A DNA stretch of 64,000 nt from positions 52,639 to 116,638 of the forward strand of contig JAFDZM010000017.1 of assembly GCA_018266915.1 (NCBI GenBank), in the 5' to 3' direction. The position numbers and the translations under genes are program-made. The notes under the pieces are model-generated. The model was not told the DNA's origin and searched no databases. It saw only the letters and a program-made list of their open reading frames with translations. How positions within the stretch are numbered: position 1 is the first letter of the stretch; each line of letters begins with the position of its first letter. This DNA comes from Bacteroidota bacterium. GTDB taxonomy: Bacteria > Bacteroidota > Bacteroidia > Sphingobacteriales > Sphingobacteriaceae. Below, piece by piece: positions 53,782-58,813 of the stretch.

Positions 53782-54321
53782 TTATTCAACTTTCTTAAAT
53801 ATCCCCTTCAGATTTCGACCCAATTCCTTGTAATCCAAACCATAACCTACTACAAATTCATTGGCTATTTCGAAGCCGGTGTATTTTAGTTCGGGGATGG
53901 TTCTTTCTAATGCGTCGGGTTTTAGCAACAGGGAACAAACGGTAATGGAAGCCGGCTCGCGGACTTTGAGCTTTTCGATCAGGTAATGCATGGTGTTGCC
54001 GGTATCCACAATATCTTCCACCAATATAATGTCACGGCCCTTGATGTCGATGGTCAAATCGAAATCGTCCCTGATCTTTCGGGTGGTTGAGGTTCCACCG
54101 TAATAAGAAGCTAATTTGGCAAAGGTGACCTCGATAGGTGTTTCGATCTGCTTTACCAGGTCGGCCACAAACAGGAAGCTGCCGCTCAGGATACCTACCA
54201 TTACAGGAATACGTCCTGAATAGTCGCTGCTGATCTGCCCGGCAATTTCGCCAACCCGTTTTTCGATCGATGCATAAGGAATAGATAATTCGAAAGTGAG
54301 ATCGGCTACCTGGGTTTTCAT
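53782..54321 (-). CDS. hpt: Hypoxanthine phosphoribosyltransferase
   Basis: GILSGSFLF, ILVEDIVDTGNT, FVVGYGLD. Start moved to MKTQ at 54321. Confidence 0.93.
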   Translation of the reverse strand: MKTQVADLTFELSIPYASIEKRVGEIAGQISSDYSGRIPVMVGILSGSFLFVADLVKQIETPIEVTFAKLASYYGGTSTTRKIRDDFDLTIDIKGRDIILVEDIVDTGNTMHYLIEKLKVREPASITVCSLLLKPDALERTIPELKYTGFEIANEFVVGYGLDYKELGRNLKGIFKKVE

Positions 54322-54422
54322 GCGGTTAAATGTAGAGATTATAGTTAAGAATATGCAAAGAGTATCCCTAACCAAAATGACTTTGAAAGTAGATTAAGTA
54401 CGAGGCGATGAAAATTTAGTTA

Positions 54423-55085
54423 CTAATTGGTCAATTCGAGTTTAAGTTGAGGGTCGAATAAAGGTTTGCTGTATTCTTTGTCAGACATGTACCGCCAAAT
54501 GCTGTAATCTATGCAAGACCTAGATATTTGAAGAAAATCGGCAGCATATTCTACTATTTTTTTGGTATGATAATATTCTTTAGTTTCGATATTCGCTAAC
54601 TGAACAAAGGAATAAATATGACGGTCTACTGCAACAGTATCAAAATTTAATAGCTTTAATAAGTAGTCTAAAGTTTTTGGTCCAATACCGTTTATTTCCA
54701 AAATCCTTTTTCGGTTTTCATTTTTTAAAAGAAATAATTTCAAGTCAGAACATGTATTTATTCGATTATCCAACAGGAATGAAATTATGTTATTTAACCG
54801 GTTTATTTTTACGGGATGCCTCCAATTGATTATATTTTCCAATCCATAACACTTTATGGTTTCGTTGAAAAAATTAACAGTATAGGCCCCGGGATAATTC
54901 AGAAGTAATTTTTGGACTCTAGGTCTCACAATTTTATTATAATTCAACCCGGCCTGTAATGTAATATCAGTTAATAAAGCACCCATATGATCATATATAG
55001 TCTCCCTTTCAACATAAATAGTTTTAAAGGATTCAAGGCCTATAATAAAATTTGCTAGCTTTCTAGCTTCAGCGACACAAGTCAT
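54423..55085 (-). CDS. HhH-GPD superfamily DNA glycosylase-like protein
   Basis: HhH ILEINGIGPKTLDY followed by AVDRH, and C-terminal IDYSIW. Confidence 0.75.
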   Translation of the reverse strand: MTCVAEARKLANFIIGLESFKTIYVERETIYDHMGALLTDITLQAGLNYNKIVRPRVQKLLLNYPGAYTVNFFNETIKCYGLENIINWRHPVKINRLNNIISFLLDNRINTCSDLKLFLLKNENRKRILEINGIGPKTLDYLLKLLNFDTVAVDRHIYSFVQLANIETKEYYHTKKIVEYAADFLQISRSCIDYSIWRYMSDKEYSKPLFDPQLKLELTN

Positions 55086-55087
55086 AT

Positions 55088-55723
55088 TTAGATTTCAGTT
55101 GTTGCTATTCTTTTTAAAGCATCTAATCTGTCTACACAGTTCGGGCAAGCCCCGCATGGAATTGTGGGAGAAGCTTGACATGAAAAAGTATTCCCAATGG
55201 ACGCTCCTAAATTTATTCCCAATTTCGCGACATCAAATTTTGAATAGTATCTAAAAGGCATATTAATTTTTACAGATCCATATTCGGATAGCATTCCTTC
55301 CATTTTTTCAAAAAACTCATTGGAACAATCAATTTCTTTAGCATGGTTGCTATTAATGAAAGCTGAATACACATTTGATAATCCAATAGTCTGCGCAAAA
55401 GTAGCACCAATTGTTAATAATAATACATTTCGGTACGGAATATAGAGATCATCAGCTTTAATATCGTCTTCCCATAAATTGGCTGGTTTTATGAACTTAG
55501 ATGTTGACCTTTTGTAAACAGACTGTATATCAATTATTTCAATTTTATTGATATGAGTTTTAGGCAAAACCTCCTTAAGGGTTTCAAATTCTGTTTGGGC
55601 GCAATGCTGACCATAATTAATAAAAAGAGGAACAAAATCAATCCCTTGATCTATTAACCAAAACGCCATAGTGGTGGAATCAAGTCCCCCTGAGGCTAAT
55701 AAAACGCCGTCTCTATTTGTCAT
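55088..55723 (-). CDS. QueC-family PP-loop ATPase (7-cyano-7-deazaguanine synthase-like)
   Basis: SGGLDS, NYGQ, YIPYRN, FSC-x7-CGACPNC zinc site. Confidence 0.92.
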   Translation of the reverse strand: MTNRDGVLLASGGLDSTTMAFWLIDQGIDFVPLFINYGQHCAQTEFETLKEVLPKTHINKIEIIDIQSVYKRSTSKFIKPANLWEDDIKADDLYIPYRNVLLLTIGATFAQTIGLSNVYSAFINSNHAKEIDCSNEFFEKMEGMLSEYGSVKINMPFRYYSKFDVAKLGINLGASIGNTFSCQASPTIPCGACPNCVDRLDALKRIATTEI

Positions 55724-57038
55724 AACTATTTATAATAAATACTTGGGAAATGATTTCATCCAAGTCACTTGAAACTAAAATTGGCAATTCTGTCAACATA
55801 CAATTCTCAGCTATTTTATACGGATCGTATACCATCACAGGTTTAGATCGTGCAGCGGCAAATCCAATTTCAATTAATGTACCTGGATCGTTATATAGTA
55901 AAACTGCGATAAGCATTTTGCATTGATCTAATAGTCTAATATCATTAGTAAACAGCTCACGTTTGCGTGTGCTGGACGCATCTTTTTCCATTTGTCCGTT
56001 CTCTTTAATCGGTCGTCTTGGACTAAAATTGTGATATTTCAAGCTCTCAACCAATAATTCAATTGGTGCAGTGTTTATGAAATCGAAATCAGGAGCTGCT
56101 ATGTAAATGTTTATTTGTTTACGGGATTCCCATGGAAGGTTTACACCACCCATACAAACCAATTCATCTATGTTTGATTTTAATATTCTTTTTACTCCAG
56201 TTTTAAAATCATCCGGGTATGTAGTTGTTGCATATTCCATTGCTACCCAAGATGATATATTTAATGCACTTTCGTAGGTTAGCATGGGATAGTGACATAT
56301 ATAGGAAGCATTATACACATCGCCCACCCCGACAGAATGCACAATTGGCCTAGTTTGAGCAGGCACTGAAACTAATTCATTCGTTTCAAAATCAAATGCT
56401 CGACTTCCGCCTCTATTCTCCTTTAATATTAATCGTTCAGTAATGTCTGTAAAATGATCTTTGAAACCCATGAAATCATTCTTGTATAGATTTCTAAACA
56501 ATTCTGATGATGTTGAAATAAATAATGTACTTAGTTTATTTGTTAAATCCTTAAATAGCGACAGGTCTGTTAAATTGTTTGCAACGTCGATATGAATTCT
56601 GCTTTTTGTCGTTTTGGATTTAATAATGTCAAACTCGTAATTACCCGAAATAAACAATAAGTCATCGTAGTTATTACTACCTAGCTTATCAATAGCAGAT
56701 GAATAATATTCCAATTTAATATCGTCTCGAAGTATAAATTCGTATCCTTGATCGCCAACTTCTTTGGCCTCATTTATTAAAAATACATAAGGTGCGCCAT
56801 TAACAGTCCCAAGCTTAAGAATCTCGTTACATCCAAGAGATTTGAGATATTTTTCAATTGATTCGTCTAAATAAGAAGGAGCAAAATAACCAACATCAAA
56901 TTCAATATTTAATGCCCATAAGCATCTAGCTGCATGAATTATGCCTCCAAGTCTTAATTTGATACCTTCTTCTGAAGTTTTTAAGGTAATATCTACAACA
57001 ACGTCGCCGATTAGACAAATTTTTGATTTAGATATCAT
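55713..57038 (-). CDS. PfkB/ribokinase-family kinase fused to nucleoside 2-deoxyribosyltransferase (NDT)-like domain
   Basis: IGDVVVD, LGG, LILKENRGGS, SVGVGD. C-terminal IYIAAPDF...NDIRLLD...DPGTLIEIGFA...KPV. Confidence 0.82.
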   Translation of the reverse strand: MISKSKICLIGDVVVDITLKTSEEGIKLRLGGIIHAARCLWALNIEFDVGYFAPSYLDESIEKYLKSLGCNEILKLGTVNGAPYVFLINEAKEVGDQGYEFILRDDIKLEYYSSAIDKLGSNNYDDLLFISGNYEFDIIKSKTTKSRIHIDVANNLTDLSLFKDLTNKLSTLFISTSSELFRNLYKNDFMGFKDHFTDITERLILKENRGGSRAFDFETNELVSVPAQTRPIVHSVGVGDVYNASYICHYPMLTYESALNISSWVAMEYATTTYPDDFKTGVKRILKSNIDELVCMGGVNLPWESRKQINIYIAAPDFDFINTAPIELLVESLKYHNFSPRRPIKENGQMEKDASSTRKRELFTNDIRLLDQCKMLIAVLLYNDPGTLIEIGFAAARSKPVMVYDPYKIAENCMLTELPILVSSDLDEIISQVFIINSYDK

Positions 57039-57409
57039 AATGGCGCAATATCAACCTTCACGTATGGCATTGGCTTAATAGATGAGGCGGTAACAACACC
57101 AGCATAATTAAAACCGTTGTCTATACAAACTTTAATATAGTTAAATTTAGTAGGTAAATATCCTACCCCAGTTCCGTCGCTAGTTGTTACTAGTAAACGA
57201 ATGTTGTTGAAAATAACTTTGACATTAGTTCCGACAGGTGGTACATCATTGTTCATCTTGTAGTAGTCACATCTAGAAACATCTTCAAGTACCGCTTCAA
57301 AAGCTTGCCCACAATTATCTTGCCCACTTGATCCACCAGAAGATGGATTTGAGCTAGTTGGTTTATTATTAGAGTAATCGGTTAAAGAACCAGAGCCTGA
57401 GCTTCCCAT
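57035..57409 (-). CDS. Small protein with N-terminal Gly/Ser tail (MGSSGSG...) and HIRAN-like core
   Basis: About 30-aa G/S-rich N-terminus. VGTNVKV...LLVTTSDGTGVGYLP...IDNGFNYAGVV resembles the HIRAN pattern. Confidence 0.65.
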   Translation of the reverse strand: MGSSGSGSLTDYSNNKPTSSNPSSGGSSGQDNCGQAFEAVLEDVSRCDYYKMNNDVPPVGTNVKVIFNNIRLLVTTSDGTGVGYLPTKFNYIKVCIDNGFNYAGVVTASSIKPMPYVKVDIAPL

Positions 57410-57568
57410 AATTTATTTTTTAGGTTAATAAAAGGTTTATTGATTTCGAAGGTATTGATCATAAGAAATACTCGCAACCCGTGAAAACACCCATTTTTAT
57501 CCCAATTTTGTTTTTATAACCAAAATCTTTCCAACTTCCGGTCTTCCCCACTTTCATAGATAAAATCC

Positions 57569-57583: not shown

Positions 57584-58813
57584 ATGATTGACTACCAGGT
57601 TCATACCTTAACCAACGGTATCCGTATTTTACTAAAGCACTCGCCTTCAACTATTACGCATTGCTGTTTTGTGGTGAATGCCGGGTCGCGCGATGAGCCG
57701 GATGATAAGGCCGGGCTGGCTCACTTTATAGAGCACCTGCTGTTTAAAGAAACCGAGACCCGCAATACCAACCAGATATTAAACCGCCTGGAACTGGTAG
57801 GGGCTGATCTGAACGCTTATACCACCAAAGAATACACTTGTATACATGCCTCGCTGCTGAAACAGCACCTGGAGCGCACGGTCGACTTGTTTCAGGATAT
57901 TTTGTTTCATTCTACTTTTCCGCAGGATGAACTGGAAAAGGAACGCGGTGTGATTTTGGATGAGATAGCCTCTTACCTCGATCAGCCGGAAGAAGCCATC
58001 CAGGATGATTTTGAAGAGTTACTGTTTAAAGATCATGTTTTAGGCAAGAATATCCTCGGCACAACGGAAACGGTTTCTTCAATGGATAAGAAGGATATCC
58101 AGCGCTTCATCGCGGCCAATTATAATACTGAAGAAATGGTCTTTGCCATCTTTGGAGATCACGATCTAAAAAAAGTAATCAAACTGGCTGAGAAATATTT
58201 TGGTGACATCAAGCCAAATCATAATAAGAAGCACCGTCATAAACCTGCCGAAAGTATTGGTCAAAAGCTGAATGTTTTTCGCCCTATTGCCCAAACACAT
58301 TGCATCATTGGTAACCAGGCCTATCCATCGGCGCATCAGCATAAAACAGGCTTATTATTGCTGAACAACCTGCTTGGCGGAATGGGTATGAGTAACCGTC
58401 TGAACTTGGAGATCCGCGAGAAATATGGAATTGCTTATACTATAGAATCGAACTACACGCCCCTTTCGGACACGGGTATATTTTCCATTTACTTTGGTAC
58501 TGACGTTGAAAAAGCCGATAAAGCATCACGATTGGTCCATAAAGAACTAAAAAAACTTCGCGATCAAAAGCTGGGCACGCTGCAACTGCACCAGGCTAAA
58601 CAGAAGTTCATTGGACAGATCGCATTGGCAGAGGAGAACCGTATCGGACTGATTATATCCATGGCTAAAAGTCTATTGGATTTCGGTTATGTGGATACAT
58701 TAGACCAGGTATTCGCTAAAATAAATGCCTGTACAGCAGAGCAATTACTGGAGATAAGCAACGAAATTTTTGATAATAGGCTGACCACATTGTTGTTTGT
58801 GCCAAAAGAGTAA
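57584..58813 (+). CDS. M16 family (pitrilysin-like) zinc peptidase
   Basis: AHFIEHLLFK (HxxEH), NAYTTKE, LNLEIREKYGIAY. Confidence 0.93.
   Translation: MIDYQVHTLTNGIRILLKHSPSTITHCCFVVNAGSRDEPDDKAGLAHFIEHLLFKETETRNTNQILNRLELVGADLNAYTTKEYTCIHASLLKQHLERTVDLFQDILFHSTFPQDELEKERGVILDEIASYLDQPEEAIQDDFEELLFKDHVLGKNILGTTETVSSMDKKDIQRFIAANYNTEEMVFAIFGDHDLKKVIKLAEKYFGDIKPNHNKKHRHKPAESIGQKLNVFRPIAQTHCIIGNQAYPSAHQHKTGLLLLNNLLGGMGMSNRLNLEIREKYGIAYTIESNYTPLSDTGIFSIYFGTDVEKADKASRLVHKELKKLRDQKLGTLQLHQAKQKFIGQIALAEENRIGLIISMAKSLLDFGYVDTLDQVFAKINACTAEQLLEISNEIFDNRLTTLLFVPKE

Follow-up and report, generated by a model that had tools for sequence, protein, structure and literature searches.

We describe here a cassette of four genes, denoted A to D, on the minus strand of a 64,000-nucleotide stretch of DNA from a Bacteroidota bacterium (GenBank assembly GCA_018266915.1, contig JAFDZM010000017.1, positions 52,639 to 116,638). 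This whole stretch is referred to as the window, and coordinates are positions within it, except where a handle such as L049 denotes a homologous locus elsewhere. Gene A encodes a small protein with a conserved Met-Gly tail and a predicted HIRAN-like domain, gene B a fusion of a PfkB-fold domain with a nucleoside 2-deoxyribosyltransferase (NDT) domain, gene C a paralogue of QueC, and gene D a protein resembling OGG-type (8-oxoguanine) DNA glycosylases. We propose, with a probability of roughly 0.55, that gene A is the acceptor subunit of a horizontally mobile anti-phage cassette that follows the logic of the accessory module of type IV CBASS (a signalling system against phages, based on cyclic oligonucleotides). 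It is the conservation of the tail, together with its linkage to a Cap9-like QueC, an NDT fusion and an OGG-like protein among defence genes, that points to gene A as the acceptor of a tag. The cassette would be an undescribed relative of the QueC-dependent defence systems that modify protein N-termini, and a member of neither CBASS nor Qat. Protein deazaguanylation was described only in 2025, in two types of system, type IV CBASS and, less firmly, Qat; if our proposal is correct, the cassette represents a third, compact architecture, in which a small HIRAN-like protein takes the place of a signalling enzyme as acceptor.

Gene A is an open reading frame (ORF) of 124 codons (57409..57035, minus strand), whose first residues are MGSSGSGSLTDYSNNKPTSSNPSSGGSSGQDNC. 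The ATG at 57409 is the earliest ATG, GTG or TTG downstream of an in-frame stop codon, and a longer N-terminus is therefore impossible here. A preliminary description, made from the letters of the window alone, had noted the MGSSGSG start and a disordered Gly/Ser-rich region behind it, and both features are confirmed: in the AlphaFold2 model, based on an alignment of 30 sequences, residues 5–29 have a predicted local distance difference test (pLDDT) score below 50, while residues 31–124 score above 90. The gene accordingly divides into three parts, all on the minus strand: a conserved N-terminal peptide, MGSSGSGSLTDY (codons 1–12, 57374..57409), defined by its conservation and by synonymous variation of its glycine codons; a linker rich in Gly, Ser, Asn and Pro (codons 13–30, 57320..57373), predicted to be disordered (pLDDT < 50); and a HIRAN-like β domain (codons 31–124 plus the stop codon, 57035..57319), defined by pLDDT > 90 and by Foldseek.

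A search of 5.8 billion proteins yielded 30 homologues of gene A. In their alignment M1, G2, S3, G5, D11 and Y12 are invariant, and the three homologues (of 30) whose called start lies further upstream retain an internal MGSSG. The family motif is M-G-S-(S/T)-G-(S/T)-G-x-(F/L)-(S/T)-D-Y; the slightly relaxed pattern (M/V)GS[STAR]G[ST]Gx[FL][ST]DY is encoded at 50 of 51 loci, including ones with a differently called start. All four glycine codons are used at G2, G5 and G7 (56 distinct DNA heads), which places the constraint at the level of the protein. An exhaustive profile search of 1.84 billion representatives enlarged the family to 310 members at 50% identity, of which 160 sequences were aligned. 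Of the residues at position 2, 135 of 156 are Gly, 16 Glu and 3 Asp; Ser or Thr occupies position 3 in 153 of 156, and Tyr occupies position 12 in 149 of 155. The linker from Tyr12 to the first Cys ranges from 7 to 38 residues across the family (median 21), and consists of 27% Gly and 14% Ser. A conserved tail followed by a disordered linker of variable length implies, on the evidence of these alignments, that the tail is no chance run of low complexity but a conserved N-terminal peptide of 12 residues, flexibly tethered. By analogy with the systems discussed below, we propose that residues 1–12 are a recognition peptide and that Gly2 is the acceptor. Invariance of Gly2 among homologues had been set beforehand as a test of this proposal: it holds in the clade to which the window belongs, and fails across the family as a whole, where 19 of 156 sequences have Glu or Asp. 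In Pontibacter korlensis (CP009621; L074, 6633-7001), gene A is called from an internal Met, and the MGSTGSG tail is lost from the annotation; public annotations sometimes cut off what is probably the functional tail.

The four genes are closely packed. The stop codon of gene A overlaps the start codon of gene B (ATGA), genes B and C overlap by 11 nucleotides, and a gap of 2 nucleotides separates C from D; to judge from this layout, they form a translationally coupled cassette with gene A first. The order A-B-C-D, with overlapping or abutting frames, is found in nearly all of the approximately 46 genomic or metagenomic loci with enough DNA. It is kept in all 18 loci on IMG/VR viral contigs, save for two contigs that end before gene D, and both loci reached independently by way of gene B also have it. 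About 65 loci, drawn from six or more phyla, share this gene order. When one genome per species was scanned, 45 loci came up, with a patchy distribution over distant groups: Bacteroidota, Alpha- and Gammaproteobacteria, Chlorobiota, Melioribacteraceae, TM6, a Firmicute, Polyangia and Chthoniobacterales. There is only one tail-less homologue of the HIRAN-like domain among the 51 loci (L049, 1992-2336), and it has no gene B, C or D nearby; it thus serves as a natural control for the linkage between tail and cassette. This homologue adjoins a histidine kinase/LytTR pair and dut.

The window copy of the cassette forms an island of 3 kb (54400-57450) with 31–35% GC, flanked by housekeeping genes of 43–47% GC, namely hpt (53782-54375) and a gene for an M16-type peptidase (57584-58813). 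The surroundings of the window cassette were searched for promoters, terminators and flanking repeats of the att type, with nothing informative and no such repeats found; a search for RNA-seq runs covering the operon found the cassette only in DNA metagenome runs. At other loci, the neighbours of the cassette include Septu PtuA/PtuB, AriA/NsnB/AbiL-like ATPases, Old, KAP NTPases, HD/dGTPase-like proteins and resolvases, and also Shedu, RES-Xre and integrases, together with TIR-STING, Abi_C, SymE, SNIPE and SRA-HNH. Further copies lie at prophage ends or on predicted viral contigs. One of the viral-contig copies (L056, 1247-15841) has a phage tail gene (Phage-tail_3/Rcc01698_C) on one side and a type I restriction R subunit on the other, and another (L064, 47-7796) adjoins an amidase and a BspA-type leucine-rich repeat protein of 1970 amino acids. 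Such surroundings are the signature of a mobile defence cassette, and not of a salvage operon.

Gene C (55088..55723, minus strand; 211 amino acids) was identified as a QueC-family ATP pyrophosphatase paralogue by Pfam (QueC, PF06508, E = 1e-35), by PADLOC (CBASS QueC, 7e-27) and by comparison of its family profile with the PDB, where Cap9 (9nto) ranks first at 2.3e-17, ahead of canonical QueCs. Its motifs are SGGLDS, YGQHCxxxE, PYR, FINSNHAKEIDC and SCQx6CGACPNC. Among 25 sequences, SGGLDS, the cysteines C182, C190, C193 and C196, the PYR motif and Asp132, which aligns to Cap9 D117, are invariant. We rejected the assignment of gene C as a canonical QueC, that is, a preQ0 synthase: it scores 101.2 bits against the equivalog cut-off of 150.3 (TIGR00364), and has YGQHCxxxE, IPYRN/T and EIDC instead of the canonical YxQxHxxE, VPxRN and YPDC. 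Its match to the PADLOC QatC model is negligible (E = 0.019). At one locus (L007) the QueC gene is broken up into two ORFs, perhaps because of a frameshift.

The similarity to Cap9 is informative because of what is known of type IV CBASS. In line with the preliminary description, Cap9 places 7-amido-7-deazaguanine (NDG, +176 Da) on Gly2 of CdnD after removal of Met (Wassarman et al., 2025; bioRxiv 10.1101/2025.04.06.647259). The CdnD tail has the motif M(G/S)G(G/S)GG, and defence is abolished by G2D; the tagged tail occupies the active site of Cap10, which resembles tRNA-guanine transglycosylase (TGT), with N9 left free, and the OGG-like Cap11 is proposed to reverse a transfer (bioRxiv 10.1101/2025.04.06.647259). 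Cap11 occurs in about one third of type IV CBASS systems.

Evidence for a relationship between the tail of gene A and the pocket of gene C comes from the clade with Glu or Asp at position 2, which we traced by protein search and contig look-ups. Gene A starts MDSS..., behind a good Shine-Dalgarno sequence, at L054 (3636-4022), and MESGSS... at L055 (8001-8366), both within the same four-gene operon. The gene C segment FINSNHAKEIDC (residues 122–133), which aligns to the base-binding YPDC motif, is invariant in the 25 partners of the Gly2 type. In the QueCs of L054 and L055 it is remodelled, with 8 of 11 invariant columns changed vs 8 of 37 elsewhere (Fisher p = 0.003), a comparison based on just these two lineages, which also diverge most overall. 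This co-variation supports a physical contact between the N-terminus of gene A and the pocket of gene C. The clade is also a ready-made natural probe of acceptor specificity.

Gene B (441 amino acids) consists of two domains, both encoded on the minus strand. Residues 1 to about 300 (56139..57038) form a ribokinase/PfkB-fold domain according to the predicted model and Foldseek, and residues from about 301 to 441 (55713..56138) an NDT domain, matched by Pfam (PF05014) at 54.7 bits vs a cut-off of 28.8. The model, built on database homologues, has a pLDDT of 90.9 and matches ketohexokinase, ribokinase, nucleoside kinase and adenosine kinase in Foldseek with E values from 1e-13 to 1e-11; the Pfam scan of the window protein did not match PF00294. 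In the PfkB-fold part, GG (31–32) and GVGD (D240) are invariant. Enzymes of the PfkB family are small-molecule kinases. In the NDT part the invariant residues are Y312, D366, D384, E390 (in the motif DPGTLxExG) and N412, and the gene B profile finds NDT structures, 6evs among them, whose catalytic-Glu motif lines up with that of gene B (E390); by alignment, the NDT domain retains all catalytic residues.

Gene D (54423..55085, minus strand; 220 amino acids) encodes an Ogg2/AGOG-type helix-hairpin-helix glycosylase/lyase-like protein, identified by PADLOC and by profile comparison with the PDB. The PADLOC CBASS OGG model is matched by 14 of 23 family members (best 2.6e-8), and by the window protein with E = 4e-4; the family profile matches an archaeal-type 8-oxoguanine glycosylase/AP (apurinic/apyrimidinic) lyase (9o00) at 4e-6, and also 3fhg. 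GxGxKT (K137) and VDRH (D154) are invariant in the alignment. The operon context and the Cap9-like QueC are confirmed; this OGG/Cap11-like gene was missing from the list in the preliminary description. Public annotation under-calls gene D at L001 and L002, and at L002 gene B is also shortened.

The folded domain of gene A had been likened to HIRAN, a resemblance that stands at the level of the fold and fails at the level of sequence. Foldseek against the PDB gave 17 matches with E < 0.1, consisting of chains of the L. plantarum protein lp_0118 (3k2y), many HLTF HIRAN domains, and Rad5. The E value is 6e-4 for lp_0118 3k2y and from 1.6e-3 to 8e-3 for HLTF HIRAN, with TM scores of 0.47–0.58 for the latter; the HIRAN-type matches have probabilities of 0.99–1.0 (1.0 for HLTF HIRAN) and TM scores of up to 0.69 on the target, and the remaining matches are of low probability or superpose poorly. 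Pfam found no match in the window protein at E ≤ 0.1, HIRAN (PF08797) included; among the homologues PF08797 is the commonest weak match (4 of 30), always below threshold, with a best E of 0.018. Alignment by hhalign to an approximate HLTF HIRAN query sequence gave a probability of 0.3%, and the gene A family profile had no significant HIRAN match among PDB sequences. On the strength of the structural model, we accept that the domain has a HIRAN-like fold. It resembles HIRAN (HLTF, Rad5; PF08797) and lp_0118 in fold and differs from HIRAN in its conserved modification-type tail, in having no significant sequence match, and in its acidic to neutral core. We know of no HIRAN domain with an N-terminal tail of the modification type. 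The invariant residues of the domain are C33, L41, P57, R71, G83, Y91 and C95. Two of these, C33 and C95, are kept without exception in the Gly2 clade and the Glu/Asp2 clade alike, which hints at a disulfide bond or a metal site; HIRAN is not known to have either.

The cassette shares with type IV CBASS a QueC-family enzyme of minimal size (about 190–210 amino acids) with a PP-loop and a Cys cluster, a partner with a disordered Gly/Ser-rich N-terminus that begins Met-Gly, an OGG-like glycosylase, a base-exchanging enzyme of the transglycosylase type, and a location in defence islands. It differs in that the acceptor is a 124-residue HIRAN-like protein instead of a CD-NTase (cGAS/DncV-like nucleotidyltransferase), a PfkB-fold and NDT fusion is found instead of TGT-like Cap10, a separate Cap effector is missing, Glu replaces the base-stacking Tyr of Cap9, and the tail motif is longer, reaching to Asp11-Tyr12. 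Pfam and PADLOC found no CD-NTase (PF18144) in the four proteins, and with neither a CD-NTase nor a TGT-like Cap10 we rejected membership of type IV CBASS.

QatABCD (PMC13279940, PMC13376578, PMC13639016) likewise combines a QueC-family enzyme with the unstructured tail of a small partner that begins Met-Gly-Thr/Ser. Both Gly2 and the MGTS tail are indispensable to QatB, whose tail occupies the QatC active site (PMC13279940, PMC13639016). The preliminary description had given deazaguanylation of QatB as reported, which holds for the need for the tail and Gly2, and for an NDG-bearing peptide seen at low level by liquid chromatography–tandem mass spectrometry; it does not hold for intact mass, by which the modification was not seen, or for the reaction, which was not reconstituted (PMC13279940, PMC13639016). 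QatC is without the Tyr/Asp pair, was not reconstituted with 7-carboxy-7-deazaguanine (CDG), and is suspected not to use CDG as its substrate (PMC13279940, PMC13639016). The base-binding Tyr is thus conserved in neither system, and the chemistry is uncertain in both. The KAP ATPase QatA and the TatD nuclease QatD are absent from the conserved cassette, gene C (211 amino acids) has none of the N- and C-terminal extensions of about 20 kDa present in QatC (about 400 amino acids), and gene A is unrelated to the QatB fold, as judged by sequence only. We therefore rejected membership of Qat also, there being no QatA, no QatD and no extended QatC. A full-text literature search of limited reach found no paper that joins HIRAN with QueC or describes the cassette as a defence system.

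The parallels suggest the following mechanism. Met1 of gene A would be removed, since Gly2 makes a good methionine-aminopeptidase site. Gene C would adenylate CDG from the queuosine pathway of the host, or a related carboxylated base, and attack by the α-amine of Gly2 would produce an amide-linked nucleobase tag with a free N9. The flexible tail would then deliver the tag to the NDT active site of gene B, which here occupies the place of Cap10 in type IV CBASS; TGT-like Cap10 and NDT both exchange bases on a sugar by way of a covalent carboxylate intermediate. Cap10 is thus a parallel for gene B that the preliminary description, in which the PfkB-NDT protein was an effector only, had not drawn. 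Two outcomes can be envisaged: N9 of the tag could receive a (deoxy)ribosyl group, the sugar of which the PfkB-fold would bind or phosphorylate, or the tag could be a plug or switch over an N-glycosidase activity of gene B. Replacement of a TGT-like enzyme by a fusion of deoxyribosyltransferase and kinase fold points to glycosylation of N9 after tagging, and with four genes and an acceptor of about 124 amino acids the cassette would be a compact system for testing this post-tag step. Gene D would reverse or edit the glycosidic product, as proposed for Cap11. On infection, gene B would act as a nucleotide- or nucleoside-directed effector, with the HIRAN-like body of gene A as a sensing or targeting surface. 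That gene B may also be an effector is suggested by analogy, because NDT-like domains are known defence effectors: that of retron Ec86/Eco1 is reported to deplete adenine derivatives after activation (bioRxiv 10.1101/2023.08.16.553469). The retron likewise uses an NDT-family domain in phage defence, there with a reverse transcriptase and multicopy single-stranded DNA, whereas here the NDT is fused to a PfkB-fold and coupled to a QueC, an OGG and a tailed protein.

Several observations weigh against the proposal that gene A is the acceptor in a CBASS-like tagging reaction. Beyond anatomy, linkage and context, the account, tagging chemistry included, is something that we infer by analogy. This applies to the NDT as a substitute for TGT, as no TGT homologue is present: Pfam and PADLOC matched no member of the TGT family in the cassette. 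No NxxE motif was found in the alignment of the PfkB-fold domain, which makes kinase activity uncertain. The core of gene A is acidic to neutral (isoelectric point 5.1 in the window, family median 5.8), and its net charge gives no support for binding of nucleic acid or for the DNA-end sensor suggested in the preliminary description. Gene C has an invariant Glu130 at the position of the base-stacking Tyr (Cap9 Y115, B. subtilis QueC Y129), so that CDG may not be the molecule ligated. Finally, Glu or Asp is present at position 2 of gene A in 19 of 156 sequences, about 12% of family representatives, whereas G2D inactivates both CdnD and QatB. Gly2 is replaced in a clade with the same operon, and is therefore not an absolute requirement of the family; either the molecule that is ligated or the atom that accepts it may not be as in CBASS. 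Ser/Thr3 and Tyr12 are better conserved family-wide than Gly2, and a residue other than Gly2 could be the one that is modified. A published reading of related genes as a salvage pathway, considered below, also counts against the proposal. Overall, the interpretation given in the preliminary description is partly supported.

The Glu in gene C and the variation at position 2 of gene A lead to the most serious alternative, which is that the tail is modified by another chemistry or at another site: with a ligand other than CDG, on the retained Met1 amine, on the hydroxyl of Ser/Thr3 or Tyr12, or with an adduct produced by the domains of gene B. We regard this as unlikely, though with an appreciable chance of being right. 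The invariant change from Tyr to Glu in gene C and the existence of the Glu/Asp2 clade within the same operon are what it would lead us to expect, as is the greater conservation of Ser/Thr3 (153/156) and Tyr12 (149/155); QatC, too, is without the Tyr/Asp pair and was not reconstituted with CDG. Set against this, gene C retains Asp132, the PYR Arg, the PP-loop and the Cys cluster as in Cap9, the CdnD and QatB acceptors have a similar Met-Gly-Ser/Gly-rich start, and PfkB-family enzymes act as kinases on small molecules.

A more elaborate scheme takes the proposed tagging further, to a protein-linked nucleotide. QueC would tag Gly2, the NDT would (deoxy)ribosylate N9, the PfkB-fold would phosphorylate the sugar, and the HIRAN-like domain would bring the product to a DNA 3′ end, so that invading DNA would be covalently protein-capped or protein-primed, with the OGG-like protein releasing or resetting it. 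We consider this improbable; were it correct, the NDT would be a guide, through analogy, to the use that Cap10 makes of NDG.

There is a slim chance, smaller again, that the cassette is a metabolic operon for salvage of purines or 7-deazapurines, in which genes C and B process free bases or nucleosides, and gene A is unrelated or regulatory. Such a function has been published for similar genes. A 'Cluster 4' of QueC proteins, about 89% of which has PfkB-NDT neighbours, is assigned to purine salvage by Libby et al. (2026; PMC13329287). Cluster 4 likewise comprises a slightly short QueC paralogue with SGGxDS and YGQ...E and a PfkB-NDT neighbour, and its motifs YGQ(x)6E and CH(x)5CxxCxGCxK are close, though not identical, to YGQHCxxxE and CQ(x)6CxxCxxC of gene C; the text consulted mentions neither a Gly-tailed upstream protein nor an OGG-like gene (PMC13329287). 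In the window, hpt, which encodes hypoxanthine phosphoribosyltransferase, lies 47 nucleotides downstream of gene D on the same strand, in apparent agreement with salvage. This adjacency is, however, absent among the neighbours of about 40 other loci; we therefore rejected hpt as a functional partner, and its position is probably coincidental. The cassette is a low-GC insert with a patchy distribution over distant phyla, and lies in the company of known defence genes and at the ends of prophages; salvage would need neither the Gly-tailed protein nor the OGG-like glycosylase that it always includes; and gene C fails the canonical QueC cut-off. Assignment to defence would correct the published purine-salvage reading of the QueC/PfkB-NDT pair.

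No more probable than salvage is a Dpd-like system of DNA modification or repair, in which gene C would make a 7-deazaguanine base, genes B and D would bring it into DNA by insertion or exchange, and gene A would be a DNA-binding accessory with its tail as a tether: the HIRAN-like fold, the resemblance of gene D to DNA glycosylases/lyases with catalytic Lys and Asp, and the action of NDT on deoxyribosyl groups are all compatible with it, but an invariant 12-residue Met-Gly N-terminal peptide is not expected of a mere tether, the conserved cassette has no TGT/DpdA-like protein or restriction component, neither its score nor its motifs make gene C a canonical preQ0 synthase, and the core of gene A is not basic.

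We also note that at many Bacteroidota loci, although not in the window, a pair of genes on the same strand stands immediately upstream of gene A. The pair (L005, 6196-7991; the equivalent is found in L009-L012, L016 and L075) encodes an AAA_15/AAA_21 ATPase of about 430 amino acids and a protein of 160–176 amino acids, and PADLOC describes it as AriA/NsnB/AbiLi-like. It may be a second system that is frequently co-transferred with the cassette.

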